Position numbers and translations under genes: made by a program. A model generated the notes under the pieces. It saw only the letters and a program-made list of their open reading frames with translations, had not been told where the DNA came from and searched no databases. A stretch of DNA of 64,000 nucleotides from Escherichia coli (GTDB lineage Bacteria > Pseudomonadota > Gammaproteobacteria > Enterobacterales > Enterobacteriaceae): assembly GCF_965641715.1 (NCBI RefSeq), contig NZ_OZ282453.1. The stretch is one strand, 5' to 3'. Positions 4,914 through 59,146 of the stretch are shown here, in pieces. Position 1 is the stretch's first letter, and every line of letters starts with the position of its first letter.

Positions 4914-5165
4914 GTCGGCTCCTTGAAAATGATATGAAACATTGCGTTTCATATTGCATAAAGGATGCCAGTCTGATTAATTTAATATATTCAATAAGTT
5001 ATGAATTAACTGGATTCTGAACGGTACAAAAATGATGGTCATTAACGTTCAGCAAAAAATGGATTCGACACCCGTGTCGCAGGGGAAAGTGAGAATGTGA
5101 TCTTGGTCACGAGAAGTGAGGTGTGCTGACCACAAGCGCAGCCAGCACGGAATGGAGCAAAGTAA

Positions 5166-6208: not shown

Positions 6209-6353
6209 ACTGGTTATTCCTTTAAGGGGTGAGTTGTTCTTAAGGAAAGCATAAAAAAAACATGCATACAACAATCAGAACGGTTCTGTCTGCTTGCTTT
6301 TAATGCCATACCAAACGTACCATTGAGACACTTGTTTGCACAGAGGATGGCCC

Positions 6354-39132: not shown

Positions 39133-40532
39133 ACACTCGCCAGCTACTGAGCGTCGGTATCGATATCGGCACCACCACCACCCAGGTGATTTTCTCCCAC
39201 CTGGAACTGGTTAACCGTGCGGCGGTGTCGCAGGTGCCGCGCTACGAATTCATCAAACGCGAAATTAGCTGGCAAAGCCCGGTGTTCTTTACCCCTGTCG
39301 ATAAACAGGGTGGTTTAAAAGAAGCGGAACTGAAATCGCTGATTTTAGAGCAATATCAGGCTGCGGGCATTGCGCCGGAAAGCGTTGATTCTGGTGCCAT
39401 CATCATCACCGGTGAAAGCGCGAAAACCCGCAATGCTCGCCCGGCGGTGATGGCGCTCTCTCAGTCGCTGGGCGATTTTGTCGTCGCCAGCGCCGGGCCG
39501 CACCTCGAATCCGTGATCGCCGGTCACGGTGCCGGGGCGCAAACCCTTTCTGAACAACGGCTGTGTCGGGTACTGAATATCGACATCGGCGGTGGCACCG
39601 CGAACTACGCCCTGTTCGATGCCGGAAAAATCAGCGGCACTGCCTGCCTCAACGTCGGTGGTCGCCTGCTGGAAACCGACAGCCAGGGGCGCGTGGTTTA
39701 CGCTCATAAACCGGGGCAGATGATTGTGGATGAGTGCTTCGGCGCAGGCACCGATGCCCGTTCGCTGACCGGCGCGCAGCTGGTGCAGGTTACCCGGCGG
39801 ATGGCAGAGCTGATTGTCGAAGTGATTGACGGAACGCTTTCGCCGCTCGCGCAGGCATTAATGCAAACCGGTTTGCTGCCCGCAGGTGTTACGCCCGAAA
39901 TCATTACGCTTTCTGGCGGCGTGGGCGAATGTTATCGCCACCAGCCCGCCGACCCGTTCTGTTTTGCCGATATTGGCCCGCTTCTGGCAACGGCGCTGCA
40001 TGACCATCCGCGCCTGCGTGAGATGAACGTGCAGTTTCCGGCGCAAACCGTGCGCGCCACGGTGATTGGTGCGGGTGCACATACCCTTTCGCTCTCTGGC
40101 AGCACAATCTGGCTGGAGGGCGTACAACTGCCGCTGCGCAATTTGCCGGTGGCGATCCCAATTGATGAAACGGATCTGGTGGGTGCCTGGCAACAGGCGC
40201 TGATTCAGCTGGATCTTGATCCCAAAACTGACGCGTACGTGCTGGCGCTTCCCGCCTCGCTGCCTGTGCGTTACGCCGCGGTACTGACGGTCATCAACGC
40301 GTTGGTCGATTTCGTCGCGCGTTTTCCGAATCCGAATCCCCTGCTGGTGGTGGCCGGGCAGGACTTTGGTAAAGCTCTGGGCATGTTGTTGCGCCCACAG
40401 CTACAACAACTCCCGTTGGCAGTCATTGACGAAGTGATTGTCCGCGCGGGGGACTATATCGACATTGGTACGCCTCTTTTTGGCGGATCGGTTGTGCCGG
40501 TGACGGTGAAATCACTCGCATTTCCTTCCTGA
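39129..40532 (+). CDS. eutA: ethanolamine ammonia-lyase reactivase EutA
   Basis: 467 aa MNTRQLLSVGIDIGTTTTQVIF...; stop TGA at 40530-40532 abuts the island. Confidence 0.85.
   Translation: MNTRQLLSVGIDIGTTTTQVIFSHLELVNRAAVSQVPRYEFIKREISWQSPVFFTPVDKQGGLKEAELKSLILEQYQAAGIAPESVDSGAIIITGESAKTRNARPAVMALSQSLGDFVVASAGPHLESVIAGHGAGAQTLSEQRLCRVLNIDIGGGTANYALFDAGKISGTACLNVGGRLLETDSQGRVVYAHKPGQMIVDECFGAGTDARSLTGAQLVQVTRRMAELIVEVIDGTLSPLAQALMQTGLLPAGVTPEIITLSGGVGECYRHQPADPFCFADIGPLLATALHDHPRLREMNVQFPAQTVRATVIGAGAHTLSLSGSTIWLEGVQLPLRNLPVAIPIDETDLVGAWQQALIQLDLDPKTDAYVLALPASLPVRYAAVLTVINALVDFVARFPNPNPLLVVAGQDFGKALGMLLRPQLQQLPLAVIDEVIVRAGDYIDIGTPLFGGSVVPVTVKSLAFPS
40525..40532. repeat. left junction direct repeat (att core candidate), overlaps the eutA stop codon
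   Basis: cttcctga, identical to 51725-51732; surrounding 20 bp are imperfectly similar. Confidence 0.5.
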
Positions 40533-41437: not shown

Positions 41438-42220
41438 TTATTTATCTCCCAGATTGTATTCCCAGTTGGGAAGTAAAGTTATCAGCTTGTCACCTTTCTT
41501 GCCTTTGCCGATCTGGTTGCCGTTCTCGTCTTTCTTGTGTGTGATTTCCTGGTCAACCTTAATCAATCCTCTCTCTTTGGCTTGCTCAATCAGTCGGTAG
41601 AATGCGCCGTTACTAATCGGCTTCCGGTTACCGTCGTTATCCATCGCAGTGATTTTCTGTTGCAGTCCGGCGTTATTGCCCAGGTATTCGCCACCTAACG
41701 CCGCCAGTACCTGACACAACATGCCGACACTGTATTTTTTCGGATTTGGGTTAATCCATTCTTTAGCTCCCATCTCTTTTTTGTCGTTGGGCGCTTGTTC
41801 TGCTGCTACTGCGTTCACCTTTTCATCTCCCATCTTGTTACCGCTTGCTGTGCGCTTAATTTCTTCCAGTTCTCTCTCAAGCTCACCTATACGTAATTCA
41901 CGCTCGATAATTACCCCGCGCAGCACATCATCATCACCGTGAGGGCTTGCCTGAATCCAGTTACCATTGGCGAGCGGTAGGAGGGCATAAATTCCGAACA
42001 GGTCACAAAGCGCGGCAAGTGTATTAAAATCAGGTTCCCGGCGTCCCTCCATCCAGTGGCTAACAGCGCCTTTTGTGACTGGTTCGCCTTTCTTGCTTTT
42101 AACACCCATGCGATCCAGTGCGGCGGCTATCTCTTCGCATTTAATGCCACGACCGCCAGCATAGCCCGCCGCTTTCGCGGCCCCTTTGAGGATGTCGTGA
42201 ATTTTCATTTCGTAACTCAT
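41438..42220 (-). CDS. XRE/Cro-C1-type helix-turn-helix domain protein (island cargo)
   Basis: ORF track 41438..42235; preferred start is the second ATG (MSYEMKIHD...) with a GGGAGA Shine-Dalgarno; HTH-like segment IKCEEIAAALDRMGVKSKKGEPVTKGAVSHWMEG; coiled-coil middle; Lys/Gly-rich C-terminus. Confidence 0.6.
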   Translation of the reverse strand: MSYEMKIHDILKGAAKAAGYAGGRGIKCEEIAAALDRMGVKSKKGEPVTKGAVSHWMEGRREPDFNTLAALCDLFGIYALLPLANGNWIQASPHGDDDVLRGVIIERELRIGELERELEEIKRTASGNKMGDEKVNAVAAEQAPNDKKEMGAKEWINPNPKKYSVGMLCQVLAALGGEYLGNNAGLQQKITAMDNDGNRKPISNGAFYRLIEQAKERGLIKVDQEITHKKDENGNQIGKGKKGDKLITLLPNWEYNLGDK

Positions 42221-42226
42221 AATTTT

Positions 42227-42257
42227 ATCTCCCATCTCATGAACTATGGTGGGAGAT
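42227..42257. promoter_or_regulatory. perfect 8-bp inverted repeat (atctccca N15 tgggagat) over the start region of the HTH gene
   Basis: Arms at 42227-42234 and 42250-42257; one arm contains the Shine-Dalgarno and first ATG of the minus-strand gene; tgggagat recurs at 42958-42965. Confidence 0.45.
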
Positions 42258-42359: not shown

Positions 42360-42836
42360 TTAGTTCATGAGGAGATCTTTAAATTCGACGCCGTATTCAT
42401 GGGCAATGTCGCCTCTATAGTAGATGTTATCTTTCAGGATATATCCGACGTTTCTCAGGACGTGAGAACACTCTCTTACTGCTGCCTCTTTACCCCTTAA
42501 AACATCCTCCCCGCTAACTTCTTCGCCGCTGTACTTCACTGCGATGTTGTCTGCTGCACGCTCTGCTGCTTCCAGGCAATTAATCTTCACTTTTCCCCGA
42601 TTCTCCCAGGCAAAATCGCGGCCATAAATCCCCATTGCATCAACCATCTTTTGCGCAGTAGTGCGCTCATCCACCCATTCAGTGCGTTCGAACTTCTCGC
42701 CAGCAGCTACCCTTGCCGCCAGTTGTTCGTGTTGAGTCTGTACGGCCGCAGCCTCTTCTTCCCATTTGCCTTGCTCGTTGTATACGATGAAGCCAGTGAT
42801 GACTGCAGCGATTAGTAACTTGTCCAGAAAATTCAT
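42360..42836 (-). CDS. membrane-anchored hypothetical protein (island cargo)
   Basis: 158 aa; AGGAGG Shine-Dalgarno 5 nt upstream of the ATG; single N-terminal hydrophobic helix LLIAAVITGFIVY followed by a charged soluble domain. Confidence 0.6.
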   Translation of the reverse strand: MNFLDKLLIAAVITGFIVYNEQGKWEEEAAAVQTQHEQLAARVAAGEKFERTEWVDERTTAQKMVDAMGIYGRDFAWENRGKVKINCLEAAERAADNIAVKYSGEEVSGEDVLRGKEAAVRECSHVLRNVGYILKDNIYYRGDIAHEYGVEFKDLLMN

Positions 42837-43356: not shown

Positions 43357-45723
43357 TCAACGTCTGCGCGGCTGCAAAATTCCTCCGGGTCGTTGTGATT
43401 CACGCTGCATCAGTCGCATCGCTGTGTTTTCTATGGTCTGCTGCAGCGCTTTTGAGTCTTCCTCTGTCCAGCCGTTGTTAGCCTGGATGTTGAACGTATT
43501 GTTCATCGTGATTCCGCCACCGCCTACCAGATCGCGGCCCGGTGTAACTCGTCCACCTTCACCCGGGATCATGTACTGTTTCCCGCCAGTGGATGTAAAT
43601 AGCTCCGGTACTCCGTGCTCCCCGACCCTATAAAGATTGCCACCGTTAACAGCCCCGCCGTTGTAACGAGCGCCAGCCAGTCCAAGCGTTTTGGCGGCAG
43701 CTACGCCAGTAGTAAGCCCGGTAAGTCCAGTGGCCCCAGCGCCGCCCATCGTGGCTACGTTAGCCAGGTATGCAGGAGTGGCCCACGCCGATCCTAATGC
43801 TGTAGCCTCTGCTAGTGCTTTAGCTGTTGCGGCTGCGTTTGCGGCTTCACCAATTAGCTGCTGTTTAACCCACTCAGCACCCATCTGGACAATGCCACCG
43901 ACCACAGAAGACAGGATCGTACTGCCAACGTTGGCAAGTGACTCTTGCAGCGATTGAGTACCGTTTATCAGTCCGGTAAATGCGCTGCCAGCGCCAGACG
44001 ATAACCCATCGACCATATTCCCGATGAGGCCATTTATATCGCTTTGTTTCTTCCACTGCTGCCACTGGAGATCCAGAACCCTTTGTTCATGTGCGATCTC
44101 TTCCTGGCGCAACTGCTCTTCGGTAGCCCCAAGATCTAGAAGCATTTGCTTGCGAACAGCCCATTCATTTTGGATCTTCTGTATTGGGTCAATCTGAGCT
44201 TTCTGCTTATCCTGCTCACTGACAAGACTGTCCCATTTCGCTTTCTGCTTGCGGATGGCTTCAGCTTCATCAATTGCTGCGAGTGTACTTGCTCGCTGTT
44301 TCGCGCTGATCAACCGTTTCTGCTCAGCCGCTTCCAGGTCTTCTACTGCTTTTTTCCGTTTATTGAGCGCCGCTAGTTCGGGATCGTATTTTTCCACCAA
44401 TGAAAGGCCGCTTGCTTCCTTACGTTCGCGTTCTCTTTGTGCCTGTTTGGCTGCCTGCTTAGCGGCGTTTTCTGCTTGTTTGGCTGCTCTTTCTTTCGCC
44501 CTGGTGTTCTCTTCTTCCTTGCGCTTATTCTCTTCTAACTCCTTGTTTTGTTCGCGTAATTTAACGATTTCCTCATGATGCGCCTTTGTCAGCTGGCCTT
44601 CTTTCAGTGCCCGATCTATATCAGCGTTTGCGTTGCCTTTTAGCTGTTCCTGTTTAACTTGCAGATGTTTAATCATCATTTCGCCAGTGGCAATCGCTGC
44701 CGCAGACGCTCCAGCATTCAGAGCTTCATTTAACGCTCTCTGACGTTCTTCTGCTGTTAATGCCTCGTTGCTGTATCGAAGTAGCGCATCAACGTATTTC
44801 TCCAGTTCTGCGCGGCCTGCCGCAGTTGCTGGTTCCATTGCTTTTAGGATGCTCAGAAGGCTTTGCGCTTCATAGGAAGACGGGTTTTTGCGGAACTGCG
44901 CCATAGCGTTATAAAGCGCCATAGCTTCACCCTCTGTGATTCTGTACTTAGCTCCCAGCCCTTCAATGACCGCTGATAACTGTTTGCCAAGCGCTGCACC
45001 GAATGCGCCTTCCTTGCTTAATTTGTTGAGCACTTCACTCAGTGAATTTCCTGACACGCCCAGCGCGTCGAGTTCTCTTGCTACCGTTCCCAGGTCGCCG
45101 CCTTTCATCCATCCTGCATTAGAAAATTCAGTGATAGCCCGGCCCGCTTCCCGCGTTTCTTCCTGGAGTGTTTTTAGCGCCCGCACGGCCTGCTCTTTCA
45201 TTACGGCGGCGGCAATGGCGTTGTTCTGTGTGGCTTCGTAATATGAATCACTGAAAGCGTTAACGCCCTGGGTGGATTTGCCGATCACGGCGTCGATTGA
45301 TGCTAATGCCTCCTTCATCCTTTCAGCGCTATCCGTTGCGTCGTCCATGCTGTCCGTTAGGCTGTTGGCAATCGCCCCGCCAATAGCCATCACCGCCCCC
45401 ATGACCGCACCGCCAGTACCGAAGGCAGCGGCAAGTTGTGCACCCTGCACAGCGAACGCCTGGAGCGCATTACCGCCCATCTGCAATTGAGTGGCAAGGT
45501 CTGCGATCTGGTATGATGCGTTACGGATTGCCGGGGAAAGGTTGGTTTTGACTGCGGCAGACGTTTTGGTCATCTGCGTGTTCAGTTTTTTGACGCCACT
45601 GTCAGCGCGTTTTGCGCCGCGTTCTATACTGTCAAAAGCCTGGTCCGCTTCTTGTTGTGCTGCCAGGAGTTTACCAGTACGGGCGTCGACCTCATAGTAT
45701 ATGGTCCCAAGATTCCCACTCAT
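43357..45723 (-). CDS. phage tail tape-measure protein, lambda gpH-like
   Basis: 788 aa; N-terminal Gly/Ala-rich hydrophobic segment (GGAVMGAVMAIGGAI); long Ala/Lys/Glu/Gln-rich coiled-coil centre; C-terminal Gly-rich region with NLYR and NNTFNIQ motifs resembling the lambda H C-terminus as recalled; no Walker A motif. Confidence 0.7.
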   Translation of the reverse strand: MSGNLGTIYYEVDARTGKLLAAQQEADQAFDSIERGAKRADSGVKKLNTQMTKTSAAVKTNLSPAIRNASYQIADLATQLQMGGNALQAFAVQGAQLAAAFGTGGAVMGAVMAIGGAIANSLTDSMDDATDSAERMKEALASIDAVIGKSTQGVNAFSDSYYEATQNNAIAAAVMKEQAVRALKTLQEETREAGRAITEFSNAGWMKGGDLGTVARELDALGVSGNSLSEVLNKLSKEGAFGAALGKQLSAVIEGLGAKYRITEGEAMALYNAMAQFRKNPSSYEAQSLLSILKAMEPATAAGRAELEKYVDALLRYSNEALTAEERQRALNEALNAGASAAAIATGEMMIKHLQVKQEQLKGNANADIDRALKEGQLTKAHHEEIVKLREQNKELEENKRKEEENTRAKERAAKQAENAAKQAAKQAQRERERKEASGLSLVEKYDPELAALNKRKKAVEDLEAAEQKRLISAKQRASTLAAIDEAEAIRKQKAKWDSLVSEQDKQKAQIDPIQKIQNEWAVRKQMLLDLGATEEQLRQEEIAHEQRVLDLQWQQWKKQSDINGLIGNMVDGLSSGAGSAFTGLINGTQSLQESLANVGSTILSSVVGGIVQMGAEWVKQQLIGEAANAAATAKALAEATALGSAWATPAYLANVATMGGAGATGLTGLTTGVAAAKTLGLAGARYNGGAVNGGNLYRVGEHGVPELFTSTGGKQYMIPGEGGRVTPGRDLVGGGGITMNNTFNIQANNGWTEEDSKALQQTIENTAMRLMQRESQRPGGILQPRRR

Positions 45724-46012
45724 AATATCTTTATCCGCGTTGTGCGGACACCTCCGATTATTCTTTACTCTAATAATTTCACAATGAAACAGTTTATTGC
45801 CGCTTCAGTGGCTTCGTGTTCCGGTTTGCTTCGATCAATCACAAAAAATACAGCTTAATAGAATCAATGGCTTATAAAGTTGTATTAGCTATGTTTCTTC
45901 GTCCGTGCCACTGAAAACCCAGTTTTTCCAATGGAATCAATACTGATATGTATCCATACTGTTTTTCACATAATGTACGTTATGCGCACTACGGGAAACG
46001 TACTGAATTTAT

Positions 46013-46243
46013 TTACTGGTCGCCGTTCAGTTCATGCAGAGTCTGTTCTGGCAATGAATCCAGCCAGTTTTCTGCATCCTCCCTGTAACACTCCAGGATG
46101 CAACGGTTTGTGAAGTTGATGAAAGCGGTCAGTGATTCTGCTTCGTCGTTCCTGTGCGTTCTCCTGGCGTGCTTGCGTAGTCGTTTCGCGTCTGCCAGTT
46201 GGTCATTGAGTATCTTCAGTCTGTCGGCAATATCATCGTTCAT
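46013..46243 (-). CDS. hypothetical small protein
   Basis: 76 aa; GGGAGA Shine-Dalgarno 6 nt upstream of the ATG. Confidence 0.45.
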   Translation of the reverse strand: MNDDIADRLKILNDQLADAKRLRKHARRTHRNDEAESLTAFINFTNRCILECYREDAENWLDSLPEQTLHELNGDQ

Positions 46244-46430
46244 GTCGTCTCTCCCTCGCGCGCGCGTCGTACTTGTCCGAAAATTACCCCCATAAAAGCG
46301 CCCCTCATATAGTGCAAAATCCCGGCTGACGCGGATCTCAGTGGGTTTTAGCAGTGAAAACTGACATCAAAAACGGCTCGCTAAGGTCCGCTAAGTATCC
46401 GCTATCGTTCGCTAACCCCCCGCTAACCTA

Positions 46431-46796
46431 TTAGATATCGCATCCAACGCTATTGAGCTGGCTATGTATATCGGCGCGAATTAACTTCAGGCGTTTACAA
46501 AATTCGCGTTCTTCCGAATTAAGCTCGCGGCCACCTTGTTTCGAGGCAATGAGCTTGTTGATGGTGGAAAGCGAATATTCACTCCATATACGAAGCATTT
46601 GTCGCTTCATTGGTTGCTCGCTCAATGGTGAGTTTTTCAGGTCTGACACGCGCTCTGCGACGGTTCTTGCGATGCCTTGTACCACTCGTAGTGCCAACAT
46701 GATGATTTTCTCCGGACTTGTGCTAATATAGTTCCCGAACATTGTTTCGAGACTGCTTATCCTGTTTGTCTTGTCCGATTTGTTCATTGGTCGCAT
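46431..46796 (-). CDS. hypothetical protein
   Basis: 121-aa ORF in the same orientation as, and closely spaced with, the upstream 180-aa ORF. Confidence 0.45.
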   Translation of the reverse strand: MRPMNKSDKTNRISSLETMFGNYISTSPEKIIMLALRVVQGIARTVAERVSDLKNSPLSEQPMKRQMLRIWSEYSLSTINKLIASKQGGRELNSEEREFCKRLKLIRADIHSQLNSVGCDI

Positions 46797-46838
46797 TGTT
46801 AAGTCAGCCGGGGTAATTCCCGGCTTTCTTTTATCCGA

Positions 46839-47381
46839 TCAGTACCGAATCCCTATCGCATTGAATACGCGTTTCCGTTGCTCAGCTTCAGGATCGGCGG
46901 CCATTTCTGGTTCTGGCTCCGGCATAGACGGGGCGGCATCAAAATGCTCAATTTCACGACCGAAATACGAGTTCAGGTCAATACCTGCCGAACTATCCAC
47001 TCCATCAAAATAGCGACGCTGTTCCTCGGTGAGACAGCTACCCAGACGTTCCTCAACCTGCGCCATAAACTCAGCATCCGGTGAGAAGTACTCATCCGGA
47101 GTCGGAGCACCGCTCTGTTTGTGCATCTCCATTTTCTCTGCGTTCGTTTTCAGCCCGGCAATGCGTTTCTCCAGTCCGGCGGCTTTAATAGCGTCAGCAA
47201 CGATTTGTGGGATCTGCGGTTTAATTATTTCGATAACTTCATTGCTGATTAATTTAAACTGGGCCATACGGATCGCTTTAATCTGCTTATTTAACAGTGC
47301 GCGTTCCCCTTCGTTGGCGGTTTTATCACGCTGTGCTACCAGTTCATCGCCTTTGTTTGTCAGTACATCAAATGCGTCCAT
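46839..47381 (-). CDS. hypothetical protein
   Basis: 180 aa; strong GGAGGAGG Shine-Dalgarno 7 nt upstream; acidic Pro/Glu-rich C-terminal tail; 17 nt downstream of the 108-aa ORF. Confidence 0.55.
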   Translation of the reverse strand: MDAFDVLTNKGDELVAQRDKTANEGERALLNKQIKAIRMAQFKLISNEVIEIIKPQIPQIVADAIKAAGLEKRIAGLKTNAEKMEMHKQSGAPTPDEYFSPDAEFMAQVEERLGSCLTEEQRRYFDGVDSSAGIDLNSYFGREIEHFDAAPSMPEPEPEMAADPEAEQRKRVFNAIGIRY

Positions 47382-47398
47382 TGTCTTTCCTCCTCCGA

Positions 47399-47725
47399 TT
47401 ATTTAAAAGTGCTTATTGACACGCCGAAACGACGACTTAATTCAAAAAGGAGTCGCGCCTTTGCAGTGCCTTCCATGTCTTCCGGCATTTCAGACTGAAG
47501 TTTATCAGCTACTTCATCAACAAGTGGCCGAACCGTTTCCACGAACTTGTCCGCAATATAATCAGCAGAACGCATCACTTTTTCCTGGAATTCCTCACGG
47601 CGTACCTGGGCGGCTGATTTAGGGGCTGTCGTGCGCTGAAAATAACTGTCTAATGAATGCATGGCATCTGCTCCTTTTACTTTGATTGCTGTTATTTCTT
47701 TAATTGTGTTTGCTTTGATTTTCAT
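47399..47725 (-). CDS. hypothetical protein
   Basis: 108-aa ORF starting 76 nt downstream of the AlpA-like gene. Confidence 0.5.
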   Translation of the reverse strand: MKIKANTIKEITAIKVKGADAMHSLDSYFQRTTAPKSAAQVRREEFQEKVMRSADYIADKFVETVRPLVDEVADKLQSEMPEDMEGTAKARLLFELSRRFGVSISTFK

Positions 47726-47801
47726 GCTGCCTATTCCTTCAGAAATTGCGGTAGTTTGCTTTTTAAATCAATAAGTTATTTGATAATCTCAGTAGCTGTT
47801 T

Positions 47802-47993
47802 TCATTGGTGGCGAGCGCCTTTGTTTTTATAGAATTCCAAAATCTCAGATCGGATAAACTTAATTCTTGAGCCAATCGGACTGACCGGGACGGGCCAGCC
47901 TTTAATCTTGTTCATCCACCGGAATATTGTCCGACGGGTAACGCCGAATAAAGCTGCTACCTCGTTAACCGTCATTAATTCGCTATCATTCAT
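47802..47993 (-). CDS. excisionase / AlpA-family DNA-binding protein
   Basis: 63 aa; HTH MTVNEVAALFGVTRRTIFRWM typical of excisionase-family domains; GAGGTGA Shine-Dalgarno. Confidence 0.7.
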   Translation of the reverse strand: MNDSELMTVNEVAALFGVTRRTIFRWMNKIKGWPVPVSPIGSRIKFIRSEILEFYKNKGARHQ

Positions 47994-48003
47994 GTTCTCA
48001 CCT

Positions 48004-48046
48004 CAAAAAGTAGCGGTGAGGAAAATATGGAGAAAACCCTCACCGC
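48004..48046 (-). promoter_or_regulatory. terminator-like hairpin in the leader of the AlpA-like gene (candidate attenuator)
   Basis: Minus-strand RNA reads GCGGUGAGG, 16-nt loop, CCUCACCGC, UACUUUUU, then GAGGUGAGAAC AUG; the 3' arm could alternatively pair with the Shine-Dalgarno. Confidence 0.45.
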
Positions 48047-48220
48047 GCCCTGAATGAAATTAAAGACCAACATTACTGTTGATACTTATTATTATATTCC
48101 TCCTGTCCCTGTTTCACATCTTTTACCATATAGTGAAAGGGGATATTCTGTAATGTTTACAAAACTTTTAATTAGCAAAAAATAATTGCGCATCTCACGT
48201 AATGCAGGGATAATATTACT

Positions 48221-48306
48221 CAAGGGCTGGTTGCCCTTACTCAAAATGTGATCTATAACTACAACGATCTATTTCACTTCCCCGCTTTCTCCGGCGGGAT
48301 TTTTTT
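48221..48306 (+). ncRNA. candidate small RNA (~86 nt), divergent from the AlpA-like operon
   Basis: Promoter-like TTGCGC (48186-48191), 17-bp spacer, GATAAT (48209-48214); internal hairpin agggctggttgccct; terminator cccgc tttctccg gcggg plus T7 at 48281-48306; no ORF. Confidence 0.4.
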
Positions 48307-49115
48307 GCCTGCAATCTGGCACCATTGCGCACATTAAAATTAGATGCCATTTAAAAGCGATATAACGCGTTCTGCCGGGCTTAATTTTGGCTATCCACTT
48401 GGAAGGGTAAGCCTGTTTTGATTCGTCTGGCGTGGAATGGTGCGGCGGTAATATCAGATCTCAGCGTTCTGCGTGGTGGGATGAAATAGCCTGGCAGGAT
48501 TTGCGTGTGGTTTGCTCTCCCAAAAAATGGGGTAATGGCGCTGGCTGGATGGCAGGACTCCGCGCTGATTACTGGATGGCTGAAAATTTAATGAAATCGC
48601 ATCAATTTTAATGCGTCTAAATCGCTCTGTGGCGACGTGAAGTTTTCAGGTAAGCAAGTGTAGCTGTGTGGTGTGTTCATCGCGTTACTGGCACCATTCC
48701 GTTCGAATTTGGCGCTATCAGGATGGTTTGCGGTGGTCGGCGGCGGGGATAAACTTGCTTGAGTGGTCACCTCAGCCTGCTGTGCGTCGTGTGATGGTAC
48801 TGTCTGCACCTGGCTATACGCTGCTTTGCTGCTGTTTCCTGTCTGGTCTGTATACGCGATAAAACCCATCGGCTTTACAGTGAGTGAGTTTTTTGCGCTT
48901 TGCTTTCCATTCGGTTTGCTTACTGCTGCTGTGTGTCTGTGCGGTAGCTCAGAAAGCTGTCGATGATAACCATCACTGCCAGACCGTCTTTTGAGCTGGC
49001 GATTGCTCGAAGTCTTCCGAAGGTCCGCTGGGCTTGTTGCTTGTTTGTGTTCTTTTAAAATGCGCGCCTCTTACTTTCTCTTAAAAAGAAAAAAGGAATA
49101 TACAGATCTCATACT

Positions 49116-49275
49116 ATGTGTGTCCCAAATGTCACACGTCATGGCCTGACCTGTATCCCAAATGTCACACGTCACCCTCTGACCTGTATCCCAAATGTCA
49201 CACGTACCTGTGTCCCAAATGTCACACGTCTATTGTTAATTAATTGTTGACCTGTGTCTCAAATGTCACACGTCT
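49116..49275. repeat. iteron array: five direct repeats of about 22 bp
   Basis: Copies start at 49116, 49149, 49182, 49206, 49250 (spacings 33, 33, 24, 44 bp); core cccaaatgtcacacgt; AT-rich ttgttaattaattgttga between copies 4 and 5. Confidence 0.7.
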
Positions 49276-49292
49276 GTTGATGGTTTAAGTAA

Positions 49293-49319
49293 TAAAAAGG
49301 GCCACCATTTTAGGTGACC
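49293..49319 (-). terminator. rho-independent terminator of the wHTH gene
   Basis: gggccacc atttta ggtgaccc hairpin (one G-U pair) with a U tract on the minus-strand transcript. Confidence 0.5.
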
Positions 49320-49338
49320 CATTGATGCGTTTTAGTCG

Positions 49339-50103
49339 TTATCTTGCGTTCTCGACCTGAAAAAGCATTCTGTATTTTCTTGCGTGCTGACCAATAACAT
49401 ATTCCCCGTATGGCTCAATGAGTCCTAACTCAACCAGGATTTTCATCTGGCGAATTACGGTGCGGCGATTCATGCCCCATTCATCAGCTATTTTTGCCTG
49501 GCAAACTTCAGATACATAAGATCCATCATTCTGCTTTCTTGCTGCTGATGCAATGCTGGATAATACGCTCCAGGCTGTAGCTTTAGCTTTATTCTCGCAA
49601 CCACTTCTGACAAATGCCTTACGTGCCGCACCCAAACAGACATAACTGCAATAAATTCCTTTTTCTTCCGTTTGGTATTGTGTCTCTTTATCCTGCATGG
49701 CTTCCGGTTCTTCCGGCGCTTCCTGCTGTGGTGCTGTCTGCGAAGTTTTAGCGGCCATACTGCGTAGCTCGTTCACGATATCAGTAGCTGATTTCTTCTC
49801 GCTTTTAGTTTCCTGCGTGACTGATAAATACTCACCTTGTAACGCCAGGAAGTCAGCGCGGGCGTTTGCCTGGCTTTGTTCTGGTGATTCAGGTTCTGCA
49901 TCGGCAGGTGATGAAATCGGTGATACACGCGCCCAGCCTGTTTTGGCGTTGCATTCCCAGCGATAACCATTAAAGCGGATATCATTCAGGCCATCATCAA
50001 TGGCGCTCCGTACTTCTTCCGGGATCGCGTCGATTTTCTGAAGGCTGTGTTTACCGAGTGATTCGCCTTGCCGTGGGGCGTAGGCGGTTGGTAAAATATT
50101 CAT
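49339..50103 (-). CDS. winged-helix DNA-binding protein, putative replication initiator or repressor
   Basis: 254 aa; AAGGAGA Shine-Dalgarno; acidic low-complexity middle; C-terminal HTH-like EVCQAKIADEWGMNRRTVIRQMKILVELGLIE; iteron array immediately downstream. Confidence 0.5.
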   Translation of the reverse strand: MNILPTAYAPRQGESLGKHSLQKIDAIPEEVRSAIDDGLNDIRFNGYRWECNAKTGWARVSPISSPADAEPESPEQSQANARADFLALQGEYLSVTQETKSEKKSATDIVNELRSMAAKTSQTAPQQEAPEEPEAMQDKETQYQTEEKGIYCSYVCLGAARKAFVRSGCENKAKATAWSVLSSIASAARKQNDGSYVSEVCQAKIADEWGMNRRTVIRQMKILVELGLIEPYGEYVIGQHARKYRMLFQVENAR

Positions 50104-50315
50104 GTGGGATTTCTCCTTTTTACTTGTTTCCCATATCGCCCGGATTGGTTAGCGGCCTTCCGGGCTTTTTGTTGCGTTGATCCTATTTTCGATCCCCGGA
50201 TTTTTTATTACAAACTTGGCTTAATCATTGATTTTATTGGTATAGCTGTATAAAAGGATAACAGGATAAAAGGGTGATAGATTGTGTAACCTGTTAACCT
50301 TTTATACCAGTAAGG

Positions 50316-50342
50316 CGAAAGAAAAGCCGGACGAATCCGGCC
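50316..50342 (-). terminator. rho-independent terminator after the integrase gene
   Basis: gccgga cgaa tccggc hairpin with a U-rich tract, 8 nt past the integrase stop. Confidence 0.5.
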
Positions 50343-50349
50343 TTATAGT

Positions 50350-51555
50350 TCACGGCTCCAGCGGATTACCGCCACCAGCCAATATCTGGTCGATGGCGTC
50401 GCTGTAGTCCTGCATCATGGCCCGCCGTTGCTTCAGATAGGCCGCCTGGTTATAAACGCCGCGCACACCTTTCGGAACGTGGGCCAGTTGGATTTCGATC
50501 CAGTCTGGTGAGTATCTGCCGTACTCGTTAAGTGCGGTTGAAAAGGTGGTTCGCCAGCCGTGACCAGTGGCTATCGACTTGTATCCGATACGCTCCAGGG
50601 CTTTAAGGATGGCACTGGCTGAAAGTGGCTTATCCATGAATCGACCAGGGAACACAAAAGCACTGTATCCGCTGCGGGTAAACTGGTCCTGTAATAGCTC
50701 GACCGCCTGCCGGGATAGCGGGACCACATGCGGGCGGCGGGCCTTCATGACTTCAGCGGGTAGGGTGATGGTTGCCGATTCCAGATCTACCCACTCCCAG
50801 CGCATTAAACGCAGTTCTGCGGTCCTTAGGGCGCTTAATATAAGCAAACGTATTGCCGTCTGAATCTGAACGCTCCCGGCTCTCTCAAGGGCTTTGTAGA
50901 AGGCCGGGATTTCGTTAATTTGTATCCATGCGTTATGGCCTGGGCGTCGGGCTTTCAATGCCGTGTCCAGATCTGCAACCGGATTTCGGTTAACCAGTTC
51001 AGTGATAACGGCAAATTTGAAGATTTCCCCTATACGCTGCCGTAATTTTCGGGCCTGTTCCGGCGCGGTGCGCTCTTTCTTCTGAAGCAATGCCAGCACG
51101 TCACGGGCCGTTATATCGACAATCGACCGCTTGCCAAGTACCGGATAAACATCTTTCTCCAGTGCCGATCTAACTTGTTTCGTGTAAGACTCAGACCAAC
51201 CGCTCACTCTGGTAGCAAACCAGTCTTCCGCTACCGTCTTAAAACTTGCCGCCATGTTGAGCGCATCAATGGCTTTCTCCTTGCGCGCTTCTTCCATTGG
51301 GTCAATTCCCTGGGCGATGAGTAAACGGCTCTCTGTGGCGCGTTTACGTGCTTCCTTCAAGGTAATCAGCGGATATACCCCAATAGCCTGTAACCGCTCT
51401 TTCTTGTCTATCCAGTACCGGAATCGCCAGTATTTGCTGCCATTGGGATGTACCAGCAAGAACAGGCCAGGTGTCTGTGAATCGGTGAGTTTGTAGGGCT
51501 TGTCCTTCGGCTGGGCGGCCTCTATGCCCTTTGCTGTCAGTGGTGTCTTGCTCAA
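50350..51555 (-). CDS. P4-type tyrosine integrase (site-specific recombinase), intZ-like
   Basis: 401 aa; N-terminal arm-binding domain (PYKLTDSQTPGLFLLVHPNGSKYWRFRY); C-terminal catalytic region with the HGWRTTFSTALNE and RGVYNQAAY motifs. Confidence 0.85.
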   Translation of the reverse strand: MSKTPLTAKGIEAAQPKDKPYKLTDSQTPGLFLLVHPNGSKYWRFRYWIDKKERLQAIGVYPLITLKEARKRATESRLLIAQGIDPMEEARKEKAIDALNMAASFKTVAEDWFATRVSGWSESYTKQVRSALEKDVYPVLGKRSIVDITARDVLALLQKKERTAPEQARKLRQRIGEIFKFAVITELVNRNPVADLDTALKARRPGHNAWIQINEIPAFYKALERAGSVQIQTAIRLLILSALRTAELRLMRWEWVDLESATITLPAEVMKARRPHVVPLSRQAVELLQDQFTRSGYSAFVFPGRFMDKPLSASAILKALERIGYKSIATGHGWRTTFSTALNEYGRYSPDWIEIQLAHVPKGVRGVYNQAAYLKQRRAMMQDYSDAIDQILAGGGNPLEP

Positions 51556-51724
51556 AACCGGATACCTCGATCTAACGACTCGATAACCCCGCTCATGTAT
51601 CCGTCGCGTTCGGTTGCGTTCGGCAGGATAAGTAACGGGCGTATTAAGTGGAACACCTTACAGGACAAGGGATAACGATGAAATAGAATTGTTCGAATGC
51701 TGTGAAAAATGTTACTCATCACTT

Positions 51725-51732
51725 CTTCCTGA
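51725..51732. repeat. right junction direct repeat (att core candidate), immediately 5' of the eutB ribosome-binding site
   Basis: cttcctga, identical to 40525-40532; followed by gggaacgactt ATG (eutB). Confidence 0.5.
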
Positions 51733-51743
51733 GGGAACGACTT

Positions 51744-53105
51744 ATGAAACTAAAGACCACATTGTTCGGCAATGTATATCAGTTTAAGGATGTAAAAGAG
51801 GTGCTGGCTAAAGCCAACGAACTGCGTTCGGGGGATGTGCTGGCGGGCGTCGCAGCGGCAAGCTCACAGGAGCGCGTGGCGGCAAAGCAGGTGTTGTCGG
51901 AAATGACCGTAGCGGACATCCGCAATAATCCGGTGATTGCCTATGAAGATGACTGCGTGACGCGGCTGATTCAGGACGATGTTAACGAAACGGCCTACAA
52001 CCAGATTAAAAACTGGAGCATCAGCGAACTGCGTGAGTATGTGCTGAGCGATGAAACCAGCGTGGACGACATTGCCTTTACCCGCAAAGGGCTGACCTCG
52101 GAAGTGGTCGCGGCGGTAGCGAAGATTTGCTCCAACGCGGACCTGATCTACGGCGCGAAGAAAATGCCGGTAATCAAAAAGGCCAATACCACCATCGGTA
52201 TTCCGGGCACCTTTAGCGCCCGTTTGCAGCCAAATGACACCCGTGACGACGTGCAAAGTATCGCCGCGCAAATCTACGAAGGGCTTTCCTTCGGGGTGGG
52301 CGATGCGGTGATCGGCGTCAACCCGGTAACTGACGATGTGGAAAACTTAAGCCGCGTGCTGGATACCATTTATGGCGTGATCGACAAATTCAACATCCCA
52401 ACTCAGGGCTGCGTACTGGCGCACGTCACCACCCAGATCGAAGCGATTCGTCGCGGCGCGCCTGGCGGACTGATTTTCCAGAGTATCTGTGGCAGCGAAA
52501 AAGGGCTGAAAGAGTTTGGCGTGGAACTGGCGATGCTCGACGAAGCGCGCGCAGTGGGCGCAGAGTTCAACCGTATCGCCGGGGAAAACTGCCTCTACTT
52601 CGAAACCGGACAAGGCTCTGCGCTATCCGCTGGCGCTAACTTCGGCGCTGACCAGGTGACGATGGAAGCACGTAACTATGGGCTGGCGCGTCATTACGAT
52701 CCGTTTATCGTCAACACCGTGGTCGGTTTTATTGGGCCGGAGTATCTCTACAACGACCGCCAGATTATCCGTGCTGGCTTAGAAGATCACTTTATGGGCA
52801 AGCTGAGCGGCATCTCTATGGGCTGTGACTGCTGTTACACCAACCACGCTGACGCTGACCAGAACCTCAACGAAAACCTGATGATCCTGCTCGCCACCGC
52901 AGGCTGCAACTACATCATGGGGATGCCGTTGGGCGATGACATCATGCTCAACTACCAGACCACCGCCTTCCACGACACTGCCACTGTGCGTCAGTTACTC
53001 AACCTGCGCCCGTCACCGGAGTTTGAACGCTGGCTGGAAAGCATGGGCATTATGGCAAACGGTCGCCTGACCAAACGGGCGGGCGATCCGTCACTGTTCT
53101 TCTGA
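51744..53105 (+). CDS. eutB: ethanolamine ammonia-lyase large subunit
   Basis: 453 aa from internal Met MKLKTTLFGNVYQFKDVKEVLAKAN... Confidence 0.9.
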   Translation: MKLKTTLFGNVYQFKDVKEVLAKANELRSGDVLAGVAAASSQERVAAKQVLSEMTVADIRNNPVIAYEDDCVTRLIQDDVNETAYNQIKNWSISELREYVLSDETSVDDIAFTRKGLTSEVVAAVAKICSNADLIYGAKKMPVIKKANTTIGIPGTFSARLQPNDTRDDVQSIAAQIYEGLSFGVGDAVIGVNPVTDDVENLSRVLDTIYGVIDKFNIPTQGCVLAHVTTQIEAIRRGAPGGLIFQSICGSEKGLKEFGVELAMLDEARAVGAEFNRIAGENCLYFETGQGSALSAGANFGADQVTMEARNYGLARHYDPFIVNTVVGFIGPEYLYNDRQIIRAGLEDHFMGKLSGISMGCDCCYTNHADADQNLNENLMILLATAGCNYIMGMPLGDDIMLNYQTTAFHDTATVRQLLNLRPSPEFERWLESMGIMANGRLTKRAGDPSLFF

Positions 53106-53125
53106 TGACGCGGAGATAACACATC

Positions 53126-54013
53126 ATGGATCAAAAACAGATTGAAGAAATTGTACGCAGCGTGATGGCGTCAATGGGACAAGTGGCCCCCGCGCCGTCA
53201 GAAGCAAAGTGCGCCACCACCAACTGTGCGGCACCGGTGACCTCGGAAAGCTGCGCGCTGGATTTAGGTTCTGCGGAAGCAAAAGCGTGGATTGGTGTTG
53301 AAAACCCACATCGTGCGGATGTGTTAACAGAACTGCGTCGCAGCACCGTGGCCCGCGTTTGTACCGGTCGTGCCGGTCCGCGTCCGCGTACCCAGGCGCT
53401 GCTGCGTTTCCTGGCCGATCACTCTCGTTCGAAAGATACCGTACTTAAAGAAGTGCCGGAAGAGTGGGTGAAAGCGCAGGGCTTGCTGGAAGTACGCTCT
53501 GAAATTAGCGACAAAAATCTCTACCTGACTCGCCCGGATATGGGCCGCCGCCTGTGTGCAGAAGCTGTTGAAGCGCTGAAAGCGCAGTGTGTTGCCAATC
53601 CGGACGTGCAGGTCGTTATTTCTGATGGCCTGTCAACTGATGCCATCACTGTGAACTACGAAGAGATCCTGCCACCGCTGATGGCGGGCCTGAAACAGGC
53701 CGGGCTGAAAGTCGGTACACCATTCTTTGTTCGTTATGGTCGCGTGAAGATTGAAGATCAGATCGGTGAGATCCTCGGCGCGAAAGTGGTGATCCTGCTG
53801 GTGGGGGAACGTCCGGGGTTAGGGCAGTCAGAAAGCCTCTCCTGCTACGCCGTTTACTCGCCGCGTATGGCGACCACCGTTGAGGCCGATCGCACCTGCA
53901 TCTCTAACATTCACCAGGGCGGCACGCCGCCGGTTGAAGCCGCAGCCGTCATTGTGGATTTGGCGAAACGTATGCTGGAGCAGAAAGCATCCGGCATCAA
54001 CATGACCCGATAA
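53126..54013 (+). CDS. eutC: ethanolamine ammonia-lyase small subunit
   Basis: 295 aa [19 protein letters not shown]... Confidence 0.9.
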
Positions 54014-58284: not shown

Positions 58285-58710
58285 ATGGAGATACGCGTAT
58301 TTCGCCAGGAAGATTTCGAAGAGGTCATCACCCTTTGGGAGCGTTGCGACTTGCTGCGTCCGTGGAACGATCCGGAAATGGACATCGAGCGTAAGATGAA
58401 CCATGACGTCAGTTTGTTTTTGGTCGCTGAGGTAAACGGTGAAGTGGTCGGAACGGTGATGGGCGGTTATGACGGGCATCGCGGGTCTGCTTATTATCTT
58501 GGCGTGCATCCAGAGTTTCGTGGGCGTGGGATTGCCAATGCGTTGCTTAATCGGCTGGAGAAAAAGCTGATTGCTCGTGGCTGCCCGAAAATTCAGATCA
58601 ATGTGCCGGAAGATAACGACATGGTGCTCGGAATGTATGAACGCCTGGGATATGAACACGCCGACGTGCTGAGTCTGGGTAAGCGTTTGATTGAAGATGA
58701 AGAGTACTGA
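58285..58710 (+). CDS. ypeA: GNAT-family acetyltransferase YpeA
   Basis: 141 aa from internal Met [19 protein letters not shown]... Confidence 0.8.
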
Positions 58711-59146
58711 GTTCCATCCTGTCCATTATGATGCGCACGGACGCCTGCGTTTACCCTTGCTCTTCTGGCTTGTGCTATTGCTTCAGGCGCGAACCTGGGT
58801 GCTGTTTGTCATTGCCGGTGCGTCGCGCGAGCAGGGTACTGCGCTGCTAAATCTGTTTTATCCCGATCACGATAATTTCTGGCTGGGGCTGATTCCAGGC
58901 ATTCCGGCGGTGCTGGCGTTTTTGTTGAGCGGTCGGCGGGCTACATTTCCTCGCACTTGGCATGTGCTCTATTTTCTGTTGCTGTTGGCGCAGGTGGTTT
59001 TACTTTGCTGGCAACCGTGGCTGTGGCTGAACGGTGAATCCGTTAGCGGTATCGGTCTGGCGCTGGTAGTGGCGGATATTGTGGCGTTAATCTGGCTGCT
59101 GACCAATCGACGTTTACGCGCTTGTTTTAATGAAGAAAAAGAATAA
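58697..59146 (+). CDS. yfeZ: inner membrane protein YfeZ
   Basis: 149 aa [29 protein letters not shown]...; overlaps the ypeA 3' end. Confidence 0.8.

Follow-up and report, generated by a model that had tools for sequence, protein, structure and literature searches.

The gene-free segment of 0.8 kb at 48310-49115 of the E. coli DNA analyzed here (the window, a single stretch of 64 kb) is genuine non-coding DNA of a largely ordinary kind, and on balance we favor the view that it is a composite that separates two modules of an island, made up of the flank of a replication origin, a conserved block (block A), a slot for accessory genes and filler. The segment belongs to an island of the CPZ-55 type that occupies a site between eutA and eutB. 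This island is satellite-like and has a P4-type integrase, and its context is taken from the annotation of a 99.8% identical genome, of relatives and of K-12. On one side of the segment is a replication module with intZ, a gene for a 254-residue winged-helix Rep-like protein and five palindromic iterons, and on the other is a control module with a candidate sRNA and with alpA, which is guarded by a terminator. Islands of this type form a little-studied family, carried by about 4-8% of complete E. coli genomes. The comparisons below cover about 30 related loci, which are given L numbers where they need to be told apart. The features of the segment and its surroundings are as follows.

47802-47993, minus strand: alpA-like gene, the left flanking gene
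48281-48305, plus strand: intrinsic terminator of the candidate sRNA, a 6-pair stem (48281-48298) and then a T7 run; left boundary
48306-48535: block A, conserved non-coding DNA that moves together with the sRNA/alpA module
48344-48489, plus strand: remnant of a small ORF (MPFK...LIRLAWNGAAVISDLSVL..), in pieces 48344-48421 and 48418-48489
48418-48477: near-invariant core of block A (TTGATTCGTCTGGCGTGGAATGGTGCGGCGGTAATATCAGATCTCAGCGTTCTGYGTGG), about 60 nt, with GATC at 48457
48519-48531: CCCA-N5-TGGG, a short palindrome or hairpin in the right-hand end of block A
48536-48580: variable junction, apparently a cargo slot left empty, and the shortest form among the loci compared
48581-48880: block B, weakly constrained and dispensable non-coding DNA, a putative filler
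48588-48869, minus strand: ORF of 93 aa, the longest in the segment
48668-48862, plus strand: ORF of 64 aa, overlapping the other two listed ORFs
48763-48966, plus strand: ORF of 67 aa, overlapping the other listed ORFs
48881-49030: block C, non-coding, K = 0.12, indels of 1-2 nt
49031-49118: AT-rich flank of the origin, the probable unwinding region
49126-49097, minus strand: promoter-like site, a weak consensus match at chance frequency
49119-49285: iterons, five imperfect palindromes of 18 bp with the form TGTGTC-N6-GTCACA; right boundary
49320-49299, minus strand: intrinsic terminator of the Rep-like gene, hairpin z = -3.74
49339-50103, minus strand: Rep-like gene, 254 aa, C-terminal winged helix

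A gap without genes or structured RNA

An earlier reading of the window from its letters (the sequence-only reading) had stated that no frame in 48310-49115 exceeds about 93 aa, and nothing longer is found on either strand. The three ORFs that it listed are confirmed at their coordinates and overlap one another, and the limits that it gave to the segment are borne out by the plus-strand terminator with its T-run on the left and the five iterons on the right. An ORF of 93 aa is at chance level, as the longest ORF in shuffled versions of 48160-49265 averages 85 aa and reaches at least 93 aa in 30% of them. The gap between the alpA-like and Rep-like genes as a whole is 1.35 kb without genes, and the NCBI annotation of the 99.8% identical genome places none in it. 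The low-complexity look of the ORFs has its source in a true compositional bias, since the plus strand of 48310-49050 is 60.3% G+T, a skew equaled by only 0.3% of equal-sized pieces of the 64 kb, with a GC skew of +0.16 that locally reaches +0.33. Most of the unrelated spacers of relatives are likewise 57-63% G+T, with 52% in the 384-bp spacer of L048 and no skew in the short spacer of L041.

The suggestion that the segment is a decayed gene, with a primase in mind, is not supported, and the wider possibility that it derives from any protein gene, be it a primase, a replication accessory or a low-complexity minus-strand protein, is already largely refuted and seems to us very improbable. Such an origin would fit with the longest ORFs being on the minus strand and Q/S/T/A/P-rich like the linker of the neighboring Rep, with the short hypothetical ORFs or pseudogene that NCBI annotates here in a few relatives, and with the DUF5906 helicase-type Rep gene that adjoins block A in one relative, L041. 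These points are countered by the absence of any synonymous excess in the six frames of blocks A, B and C (synonymous fraction 0.14-0.37; 0.77 for alpA in its true frame) and of an intact long ORF in all of about 14 variants. Indels within the blocks are of 1-2 nt, and in block B a single one of 132 counted is a multiple of 3. Translations of all six frames match neither PHROG nor Pfam families at E ≤ 0.1, or even at E ≤ 1, and contain no primase-helicase remnant, and a translated search of phages and plasmids for frameshifted remnants (tblastn) yielded none, its sole plasmid match being the same non-coding block in CP057168.1. By tblastn there is also no similarity to the L041 helicase, nor to the island proteins of K-12 or relatives beyond the blocks recognized at the DNA level. 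The DUF5906 Rep of L041 is an alternative replication cassette without similarity to the segment. The 'pseudogene' of L008 is an intact inserted gene of 206 aa plus flanking DNA, and the short 'hypothetical proteins' called in the gap in some genomes are probably spurious. The 93-aa ORF and its L008 counterpart have 63% protein identity at 82% DNA identity. The comparison with homologous islands proposed by the sequence-only reading gives no intact long ORF, and what it reveals is a mosaic of non-coding blocks.

The long non-coding RNA also proposed earlier is likewise not supported as a structured RNA. Rfam models have no match at E < 0.8 in 46000-52000, the segment itself has none, and none of ten related loci has a match at the gathering score. 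The MFE z-scores of all 120-nt windows in the segment are between -1.8 and +1.6 on both strands, and the covariation term is -0.41, with double changes only in one hairpin of 4 bp. Thus with no protein, phage or Rfam match and with folding at chance level, neither a decayed primase nor a structured long RNA is supported. The base pairs of the hairpin at 48519-48531, which is replaced at the same position in relatives by CCCAAATTTGGG, CTCAAATTTGAG or GGTCCAGATTTGGACC, are the only ones in block A that have changed on both sides. Among other candidates tried and rejected, the partner of an inverted repeat (48434-48443 with 48691-48700) is not kept in relatives and neither is an F/R100-type nic-like run (GTGTGGTG, near 48666), the pairing of a terminator-like hairpin at 48598-48615 is disrupted in several relatives, the spacing of a dif/Xer-like site at 48585-48620 is incorrect, and an RfaH ops-like sequence, GGCGGTAA, has mismatches at key positions. 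The segment does not behave as a dispersed repeat of the MITE or ERIC/REP type, since across 431 genomes it occupies a median of 1 and at most 2 places in each.

Origin flank, conserved block and cargo slot

That the segment might be cis-acting DNA, the last of the earlier suggestions, is supported in part, by its right-hand ~85 bp, which flank the origin, and by the clustered conservation of a core in block A, but not as a cos or pac site. The five iterons have 0-1 mismatch each, where 0.18 copies are expected, and their motif is restricted to 49123-49273 within the 64 kb. They lie 54 bp downstream of the Rep-like gene, which encodes the DNA-binding initiator (Pfam HTH_36, E = 3.5e-5, with weak PHROG matches to replication initiation proteins), in the arrangement of an iteron-type origin. 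The AT-rich region that adjoins the iterons in such origins is also present, at 75% A+T in 49082-49121, and of the segment it takes in the right ~85 bp alone. Between the window and L009 or L039 the flank and iterons together have K = 0.008-0.009 while the dS of the adjacent rep gene is 0.24, and since the two are conserved together we assign the flank to the origin, of which 49031-49118 would be an integral part. Where relatives have a different Rep allele, it comes with repeats of its own. No DnaA box (TTATNCACA, up to 1 mismatch) is present in 47422-51700, the window has no crr-like second, distant copy of the origin repeats, and there is no similarity to a ColE1-type or any plasmid origin. 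A TGT-N12-ACA pattern considered as an activator site matches the iterons alone. One circular relative of 9 kb, CP057168.1, is recorded as a plasmid, which fits autonomous replication and is suggestive only.

Block A is at the opposite end of the segment and follows the control module rather than the origin. It is found beside four different replication cassettes, and in relatives with AlpA proteins at only 47-55% identity it has 76-97% identity, blocks A and B together being at 76-92% under the same AlpA divergence. The order of sRNA promoter, terminator, block A and origin is constant across the four kinds of cassette. The terminator of the sRNA lies within an 88-nt fold (z = -3.37) and is kept in relatives with a tail of U7-9. 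The sRNA has no consistent pairing target inside the segment, and its best conserved pairing falls outside, at ribosome-binding sites. We regard block A, whatever replication cassette adjoins it, as a putative conserved cis element that always accompanies the sRNA/alpA switch.

Block A has no coding signal. Loss of 1 nt from the T-run 48385-48388 disrupts its small plus-strand ORF here, and the ORF is also frameshifted in L001, interrupted by a stop in L002, L005, L013 and L004, without an ATG in L009 and L039, and open, at 78-133 aa, in L006, L007, L011 and L014. It shows no synonymous excess, and among 5.8 billion proteins it has 7 matches, with tails that differ or are chimeric. The conservation of block A is concentrated in the near-invariant core, which is kept where the flanks differ by 20-30%. 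The longest invariant run is 18 columns, compared with a mean of 6.7 and a maximum of 17 in permutations (P < 0.0002), and judged by these alignments the 60-nt core appears to be under constraint. It is not indispensable, because a gene insertion has taken its place in L054 and L008 has it in truncated form. Runs in the core that might form a two-tetrad G-quadruplex were dropped as a candidate.

The variable junction has 57 bp here between the last and first aligned bases, and in relatives it extends over 110-1500 bp that include cargo genes. L008 has the 206-aa gene, which encodes a winged-helix protein and has its own terminator, L054 has a gene of 150 aa, an HTH gene with YafO-family toxin genes is found at the junctions of L014, L040, L038 and L054, and some relatives have an unrelated spacer of 113-232 bp. 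Compared in this way, 48536-48580 appears to be a slot for accessory genes that relatives occupy and that is empty here. Blocks B and C (48581-49030) would be dispensable filler with weak constraint and with neither coding capacity nor RNA structure. Block B is 82-93% identical in 13 distinct relatives with its substitutions evenly scattered (longest invariant run 10 versus 9.6 expected, P = 0.43), and is absent from L013, L038, L041, L046 and L050; blocks B and C are both missing in several relatives that retain an origin. With K = 0.15 for block B against a rep dS of 0.24 (K/dS about 0.6), and a divergence of the two blocks at about 0.5-0.6 of the neighboring synonymous rate, an unrecognized function is allowed for.

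A possible transcriptional insulator and rival readings of the segment

In the leftward sense the core may load Rho and thereby insulate the alpA switch from origin-side or cargo transcripts, a mechanism drawn from its sequence that we put forward tentatively. It would do so because in the minus-strand sense it is untranslated, C-rich, G-poor and unusually unstructured. In 48550-48433 the C/G ratio is 2.4-2.5 over 78 nt, the 99.5th percentile of the window, and a 125-nt minus-strand RNA of the core region has an MFE of -13.4 kcal/mol (z = +1.66), with 191 of 200 shuffles folding more stably; no ORF crosses it. The tract thus has the sequence properties of a rut site, and resembles Rho-dependent terminators such as lambda tR1 in being untranslated, with a C>G bubble and very weak folding on the minus strand. 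It differs from them in that its upstream promoter is only a candidate and its 60-nt near-invariance is atypical, and such near-identity, unusual for a Rho loading site, suggests a more specific recognition. The source of its leftward transcripts is doubtful, as a strong terminator of its own ends the rep gene and the sole candidate leftward promoter is at chance level. A bolder form, in which the G+T-rich tract and the core together are a dedicated strand-asymmetric cis element that is retained with any replication cassette or AlpA allele, acting either as a Rho insulator that holds the alpA switch silent or as a coupler of transcription or R-loops that fires the origin once the switch opens, and forming with the unannotated sRNA and the alpA terminator an RNA-based control circuit, is in our estimation unlikely; a circuit of this kind would be one not yet described for E. 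coli satellites.

A rival account is that everything except the origin flank is a functionless relic in a young and often-recombining family, the core being a recombination junction shared by descent. The evenly scattered substitutions of block B and the 1-2 nt indels agree with this, as do the absence of blocks B and C from several relatives and the loss of the core in L054. Local histories are also mosaic, block B having K = 0.077 between the window and L002 where the flanks have 0-0.02, and the conservation of blocks A and B above that of alpA could alternatively reflect recent recombination between island lineages rather than selection. Moreover, only E. coli-like genomes have the module; a scan for the core pattern in one genome per species gave 21 chance matches, mainly non-enterobacterial, and none in Enterobacteriaceae. 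An IMG/VR match, L015, was set aside as a relative since it arose by chance, within a long ORF on a viral contig that is G+C-rich and unrelated, and a second IMG/VR pattern had no matches. A relic, however, would not be expected to show the significantly clustered conservation of block A, the far better preservation of blocks A and B than of the adjacent alpA, and K below dS, and neutral decay does not predict a G+T skew common to most non-homologous spacers. We consider it doubtful that the segment is no more than a relic.

Improbable, in our view, is a rightward read-through transcript from the sRNA promoter, a G+U-rich RNA that would activate the origin by transcription or R-loop priming and so link the switch to replication. 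The constant orientation from sRNA promoter to origin would suit it, the G-rich and T-rich plus strand favors R-loops and fits the bias of a non-template strand, and some relatives have a small ORF just beyond the terminator. Yet the terminator in its path is strong and conserved, blocks B and C are missing in relatives that have an origin, the short L041 spacer lacks the skew, the sRNA is on the same strand rather than antisense, no likeness to ColE1-type or other plasmid origins is seen, and the Rep protein and iterons already explain initiation. The least credible of the readings considered is a site recognized by a helper phage, either cos/pac or the target of a helper-encoded regulator. 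Blocks that stay constant while Rep and AlpA alleles are swapped would be in keeping with it, and two proteins typical of cos packaging, an HNH endonuclease and one like TerS, are encoded in relatives. In HK97-like systems, however, cos is beside terS, that is, elsewhere than in this segment, and both the core and block B are dispensable in some relatives. The P2/P4 cos sequence GGCGAGGCGGGGAAAGCAC is absent from the entire 64 kb with up to 3 mismatches, the segment has no lambda-type cosN site like GGGCGGCGACCT (counts across the window are at chance) and no cos or pac similarity, and its DNA has no match in 50,697 phage records even at E ≤ 5.

Relation to known satellites and to CPZ-55 of K-12

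In the E. coli PICIs (such as EcCICFT073) and PIMEs, a rep-ori with iterons and an AT-rich region has been shown experimentally to be a replicon (PMC6092414; bioRxiv 10.64898/2026.01.12.698999). The island described here resembles them as an int and alpA island with iterons and an AT-rich region immediately downstream of rep. It differs in its order, which is int-rep-ori-spacer-alpA where theirs is int-alpA-...-rep-ori, and in its Rep, a winged-helix protein of 254 aa in which no helicase or primase domain is found. It also has one tandem set of iterons where theirs, like L041, have two sets flanking the AT-rich region, and it lacks a DnaA box (47422-51700). For neither PICIs nor PIMEs is a non-coding tract of ~0.8 kb between origin and alpA described. 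The PIME family (bioRxiv 2026) was rejected as a home for the island, as tra/trb genes are absent.

Phage-satellite hotspots, as in P4-like elements and PICIs, hold defense or toxin-antitoxin cargo between conserved flanks. The junction would resemble them in its fixed position and in the different small gene sets of each relative, including a YafO-family toxin-antitoxin pair. It is unlike them in having non-coding blocks rather than core genes as its flanks, in being empty here and in a cargo that includes no recognized defense system.

The result is mainly a clean-up of annotation, in that no gene was missed in the gap, and it clarifies the layout of the family as int, Rep, origin, variable cargo zone, sRNA and alpA. 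If the core and the strand bias are functional, they would offer a testable handle on how the switch is insulated from neighboring transcription or coupled to replication. The analysis also identifies CPZ-55 of K-12 (intZ, yffL-yffS) as a deleted remnant of this island family. K-12 shares the eutA/eutB insertion site and the integrase gene, its yffS and yffR are homologous to the ORFs at 41438-42235 and 42360-42836, and yffL is Rep-like, whereas blocks A and B, the sRNA and alpA are lacking. The right part of block C (48958-49026) is the only piece of the segment retained, as a 62-bp match (48965-49026) that overlaps the start of yffM, a deletion fusion in which it is joined to a homologue of the ORF at 46431-46796.

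Coding and folding capacity of the segment

The segment at 48310-49115 belongs to an island inserted between eutA (39129-40532) and eutB (51702 onward) of E. coli, which is the site of the K-12 cryptic prophage CPZ-55. All genes of the island are on the minus strand, with a candidate small RNA (sRNA) on the plus strand, and the order is intZ, a Rep-like gene, its terminator, iterons, the segment, the sRNA, an AlpA-like gene (alpA), small ORFs and a tape measure gene.

Features of the island and of the segment
50350-51555, minus: intZ
49339-50103, minus: Rep-like gene, 254 aa, C-terminal HTH_36 winged helix, weak matches to phage replication initiators
49320-49299, minus: terminator of the Rep-like gene
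49119-49285: five repeats (iterons), right boundary of the segment
48763-48966, plus: ORF, 67 aa
48668-48862, plus: ORF, 64 aa
48588-48869, minus: ORF, 93 aa
48281-48298, plus: intrinsic terminator followed by a T-run, left boundary of the segment
48219-48306, plus: candidate 88-nt sRNA, three hairpins including the terminator, MFE z=-3.37
48209-48214, plus: sRNA promoter -10 box GATAAT, conserved
48015-48051, minus: strong intrinsic terminator in the alpA leader, GCGGUGAGG...CCUCACCGC and U-run, z=-4.37
47802-47993, minus: AlpA-like HTH_17 protein
beyond the AlpA-like gene, minus: small unknown ORFs
43357-45723, minus: full-length tape measure protein gene, PHROG E=8e-112

The sequence-only reading described the segment as ORF-poor and bounded by a terminator and a repeat array, and this observation is confirmed. 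Both boundaries hold, and in the ORF list for 44000-54000 the three ORFs it named have exactly those coordinates, overlap one another and are exceeded by no longer one. Shuffles of 48160-49265 give a longest ORF of 85 aa on average and of at least 93 aa in 30% of cases, so the ORFs of the segment are a chance product. No gene is annotated between the alpA-like and Rep-like genes in a 99.8% identical copy from strain USDA-ARS-USMARC-49610.

The same reading considered that the segment might be a decayed gene, possibly a primase. Synonymous and non-synonymous differences were counted in six frames projected on the window, and the true frame of alpA gave 50 against 15 (fraction 0.77); blocks A (48306-48535), B (48581-48880) and C (48881-49030) of the segment gave synonymous fractions of 0.14-0.37 in every frame, and their indels are nearly all of 1 or 2 nt. 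Between the 93-aa ORF and its counterpart of 60 aa in the related locus L008, identity is ~63% in protein and 82% in DNA, as unconstrained drift would give. A plus-strand ORF that begins with the ATG at 48344 (MPFK...LIRLAWNGAAVISDLSVLCGG) stays open over 78-133 aa in L006, L007, L011 and L014, is frameshifted in the window and L001, and is interrupted by a stop in L002, L005, L013 and L004; in L009 and L039 the ATG itself is missing. Its tail differs in reading frame among loci, it has only seven matches among 5.8 billion proteins, one of them a EutR chimera, and in the window it would be at most a dead small ORF. Six-frame translations of the segment match no PHROGs or Pfam family at E<=0.1, and tblastn returned no remnant in phages and, in plasmids, only the CP057168.1 block itself. 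Apart from the blocks that match as DNA, the segment shows no resemblance to proteins of the K-12 island, to those of the cargo genes or to the L041 helicase. With no synonymous excess, family match or tblastn remnant, a decayed primase or other gene is unsupported, and the segment is not a missed gene.

A long non-coding RNA was also offered, and as a structured RNA it finds no backing: Rfam has no match in the segment, nor in any of ten related loci, 120-nt sliding windows across the segment have MFE z-scores of -1.8 to +1.6 on both strands, which is near chance, and folding ten block A variants to a consensus gives a covariation term of -0.41. Among these variants only a 4-bp hairpin (48519-48531) changes on both pair sides (CCCA/TGGG, CTCA/TGAG, GGTCCA/TGGACC), and the only strong fold signal nearby in the sliding windows is that of the neighboring sRNA (z=-3.2).

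Mosaic structure and the origin flank

Of 5426 complete E. coli genomes, 431 carry some part of the segment and 93 carry 80% or more, and its one plasmid match is the circular 9-kb CP057168.1. About 30 loci, taken from genomes of E. coli and from gut metagenomes, were compared with the window, and the segment proved to be a mosaic of four pieces. Block A is present in almost all loci and runs on from the sRNA terminator, with a near-invariant core (about 48418-48477) between flanks that are 20-30% divergent and fall into two or three alleles. At the junction (48536-48580), the window has 57 bp between 48513 and 48580 where relatives carry either 113-232 bp of spacer, unrelated from one relative to the next, or genes, namely a winged-helix protein of 206 aa that has a terminator of its own (L008), a 150-aa protein that replaces the core (L054), and a small HTH protein with a YafO-family toxin (L014, L040, L038, L054). 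Blocks B and C have 82-93% identity where present and are absent from L013, L038, L041, L046 and L050. The AlpA proteins of relatives are only 47-55% identical to that of the window, and blocks A and B can still be aligned at 76-92% DNA identity.

To the right of the segment the Rep gene and repeats are swapped together as cassettes, and different Rep alleles accompany different repeat sequences: five 18-bp palindromic units in the window, four 26-bp units in L004 and five 23-bp units in L006. L041, from a gut metagenome, has a helicase-type Rep, and on its reverse strand (about 4070-6420) block A adjoins a PICI-style replicon of a 527-aa DUF5906 P-loop protein, a second AlpA-like gene and two iteron sets (GGTGACACATC) that flank an AT-rich stretch. 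Each iteron of the window is an imperfect palindrome, TGTGTC-N6-GTCACA, resembling operators of dimeric winged-helix proteins and lambda O-type origin repeats.

In the collinear pair of the window and L009, rep has dS=0.24 and dN=0.06, block B K=0.15 and block C K=0.12, and the AT-rich flank with the iterons (49031-49290) has K=0.009. Given this low K and an A+T content of 75% at 49082-49121, the right ~85 bp of the segment behaves as part of the origin, and by co-conservation 49031-49118 is shown to be its flank. The proposal of cis-acting DNA is partly supported, by these ~85 bp and by clustered conservation in the block A core. Blocks B and C behave like ordinary, weakly constrained intergenic DNA. 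No DnaA boxes or extra iteron copies occur in or near the segment.

The sRNA, the alpA leader and strand bias

The sRNA has no Rfam match, no RNA gene is annotated at its position in the examined loci, and 213 of the 5426 complete E. coli genomes have it together with block A. Its first stem varies among island alleles with pairing kept. Its piece CUCAAAAUGU could pair at 9/10 positions with ACUUUUUGAG in the alpA leader, and the sRNA of L008 has a 15-nt perfect match to the ribosome-binding site of the HNH gene. The terminator in the alpA leader stops about 10 nt short of the Shine-Dalgarno sequence, a position that suggests that alpA may be under attenuation control.

The plus strand of 48310-49050 is 60.3% G+T (GC skew +0.16, AT skew -0.25), a skew reached by only 0.3% of equal-sized windows in the 64 kb. 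The bias recurs (57-63% G+T) in most spacers of relatives, which are unrelated to one another; the 384-bp spacer of L048 (52%) lacks it, and so do inserted genes. A leftward RNA would be C-rich and G-poor (C/G 2.4-2.5 at 48550-48433, 99.5th percentile) and would be less structured than 191 of 200 shuffles. C-rich, G-poor, weakly structured untranslated RNA has the properties of a Rho loading site. A second plus-strand G+T excess, equally extreme (60-61%), lies at about 58300-59100 and overlaps ORFs on both strands.

Possible roles and relation to known elements

Most likely the segment is non-coding DNA that lies between the island's replication module and its control module. It would comprise an origin flank, a conserved block tied to the switch formed by the sRNA and alpA, a cargo slot, empty here, and filler DNA that is dispensable. 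For the conserved block the favored role, though less likely than not, is that of an insulator by Rho-dependent termination of leftward transcripts, which could arise on the origin side or in cargo genes, the latter being mostly on the minus strand in relatives. However, a promoter for such transcripts is not established, rep already has its own strong terminator, near-invariance over 60 nt is atypical of Rho sites, and L054 does without the core. The main rival is that all but the origin flank is inert and conserved merely through recent recombination. Recombination within the segment is seen between the window and L002, where block B has K=0.077 and its flanks 0-0.02, and invariant columns are evenly spread in block B (longest run 10 versus 9.6 expected, P=0.43). 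In block A they are clustered, the longest run being 18 where permutations averaged 6.7 and never exceeded 17. Transcription that reads through rightward into the origin is less likely; its RNA would be G+U-rich, and such RNA favors R-loops. A helper-phage site, for which phage records offer no match to the segment DNA, and a dead gene, which the coding tests speak against, are also less likely.

The segment as a non-coding zone is real but largely ordinary, neither a missed gene nor a structured RNA, and the interesting residue is the conserved core and shared strand bias beside an unannotated sRNA and a terminator-guarded alpA, these last two being better targets for follow-up than the segment. 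In its variable content the junction would be akin to the accessory-gene hotspots described for satellites. Experiments have demonstrated replicons with a similar rep-iteron-AT-rich layout in PICIs of E. coli (PMC6092414) and in PIMEs (bioRxiv 10.64898/2026.01.12.698999), but the island differs in gene order, its small helicase-less Rep, a single tandem iteron set and no DnaA box. The tra and trb genes characteristic of PIMEs are absent from it, as are the primase-helicase and cos characteristic of P4-like elements. Relatives encode an HK97 gp10-like protein, an HNH endonuclease and a TerS-like protein (L053 1-1342; L008 1-179, 1551-1946), which with the tape measure gene form an unusual gene set for a satellite-sized int/alpA island family.

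CP057168.1 (L004, 9003 bp) holds the sRNA/block A/block B module beside its own AlpA-like gene, together with its own winged-helix Rep-like gene and four 26-bp iterons, an HNH endonuclease and a serine recombinase, and may be an episomal or excised relative of the island. Of the segment, K-12 (L003) has just 62 bp (48965-49026), which lie where yffM begins; the first ~15 codons of yffM derive from block C (window 48958-49026). YffM residues 16-79 are homologous to the window ORF at 46431-46796, and yffM (L003 5767-6012) matches the C-terminal part of this 121-aa ORF at 45% identity (E=2e-13). This match and the 62-bp remnant mark the K-12 island as derived by deletion, with yffM apparently a fusion that this deletion left behind. 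The 223-aa protein P0003, in which 46 residues from an L007-type spacer are fused to the C-terminal two thirds of EutR, indicates genomes where a deletion would join an island remnant to eutR.
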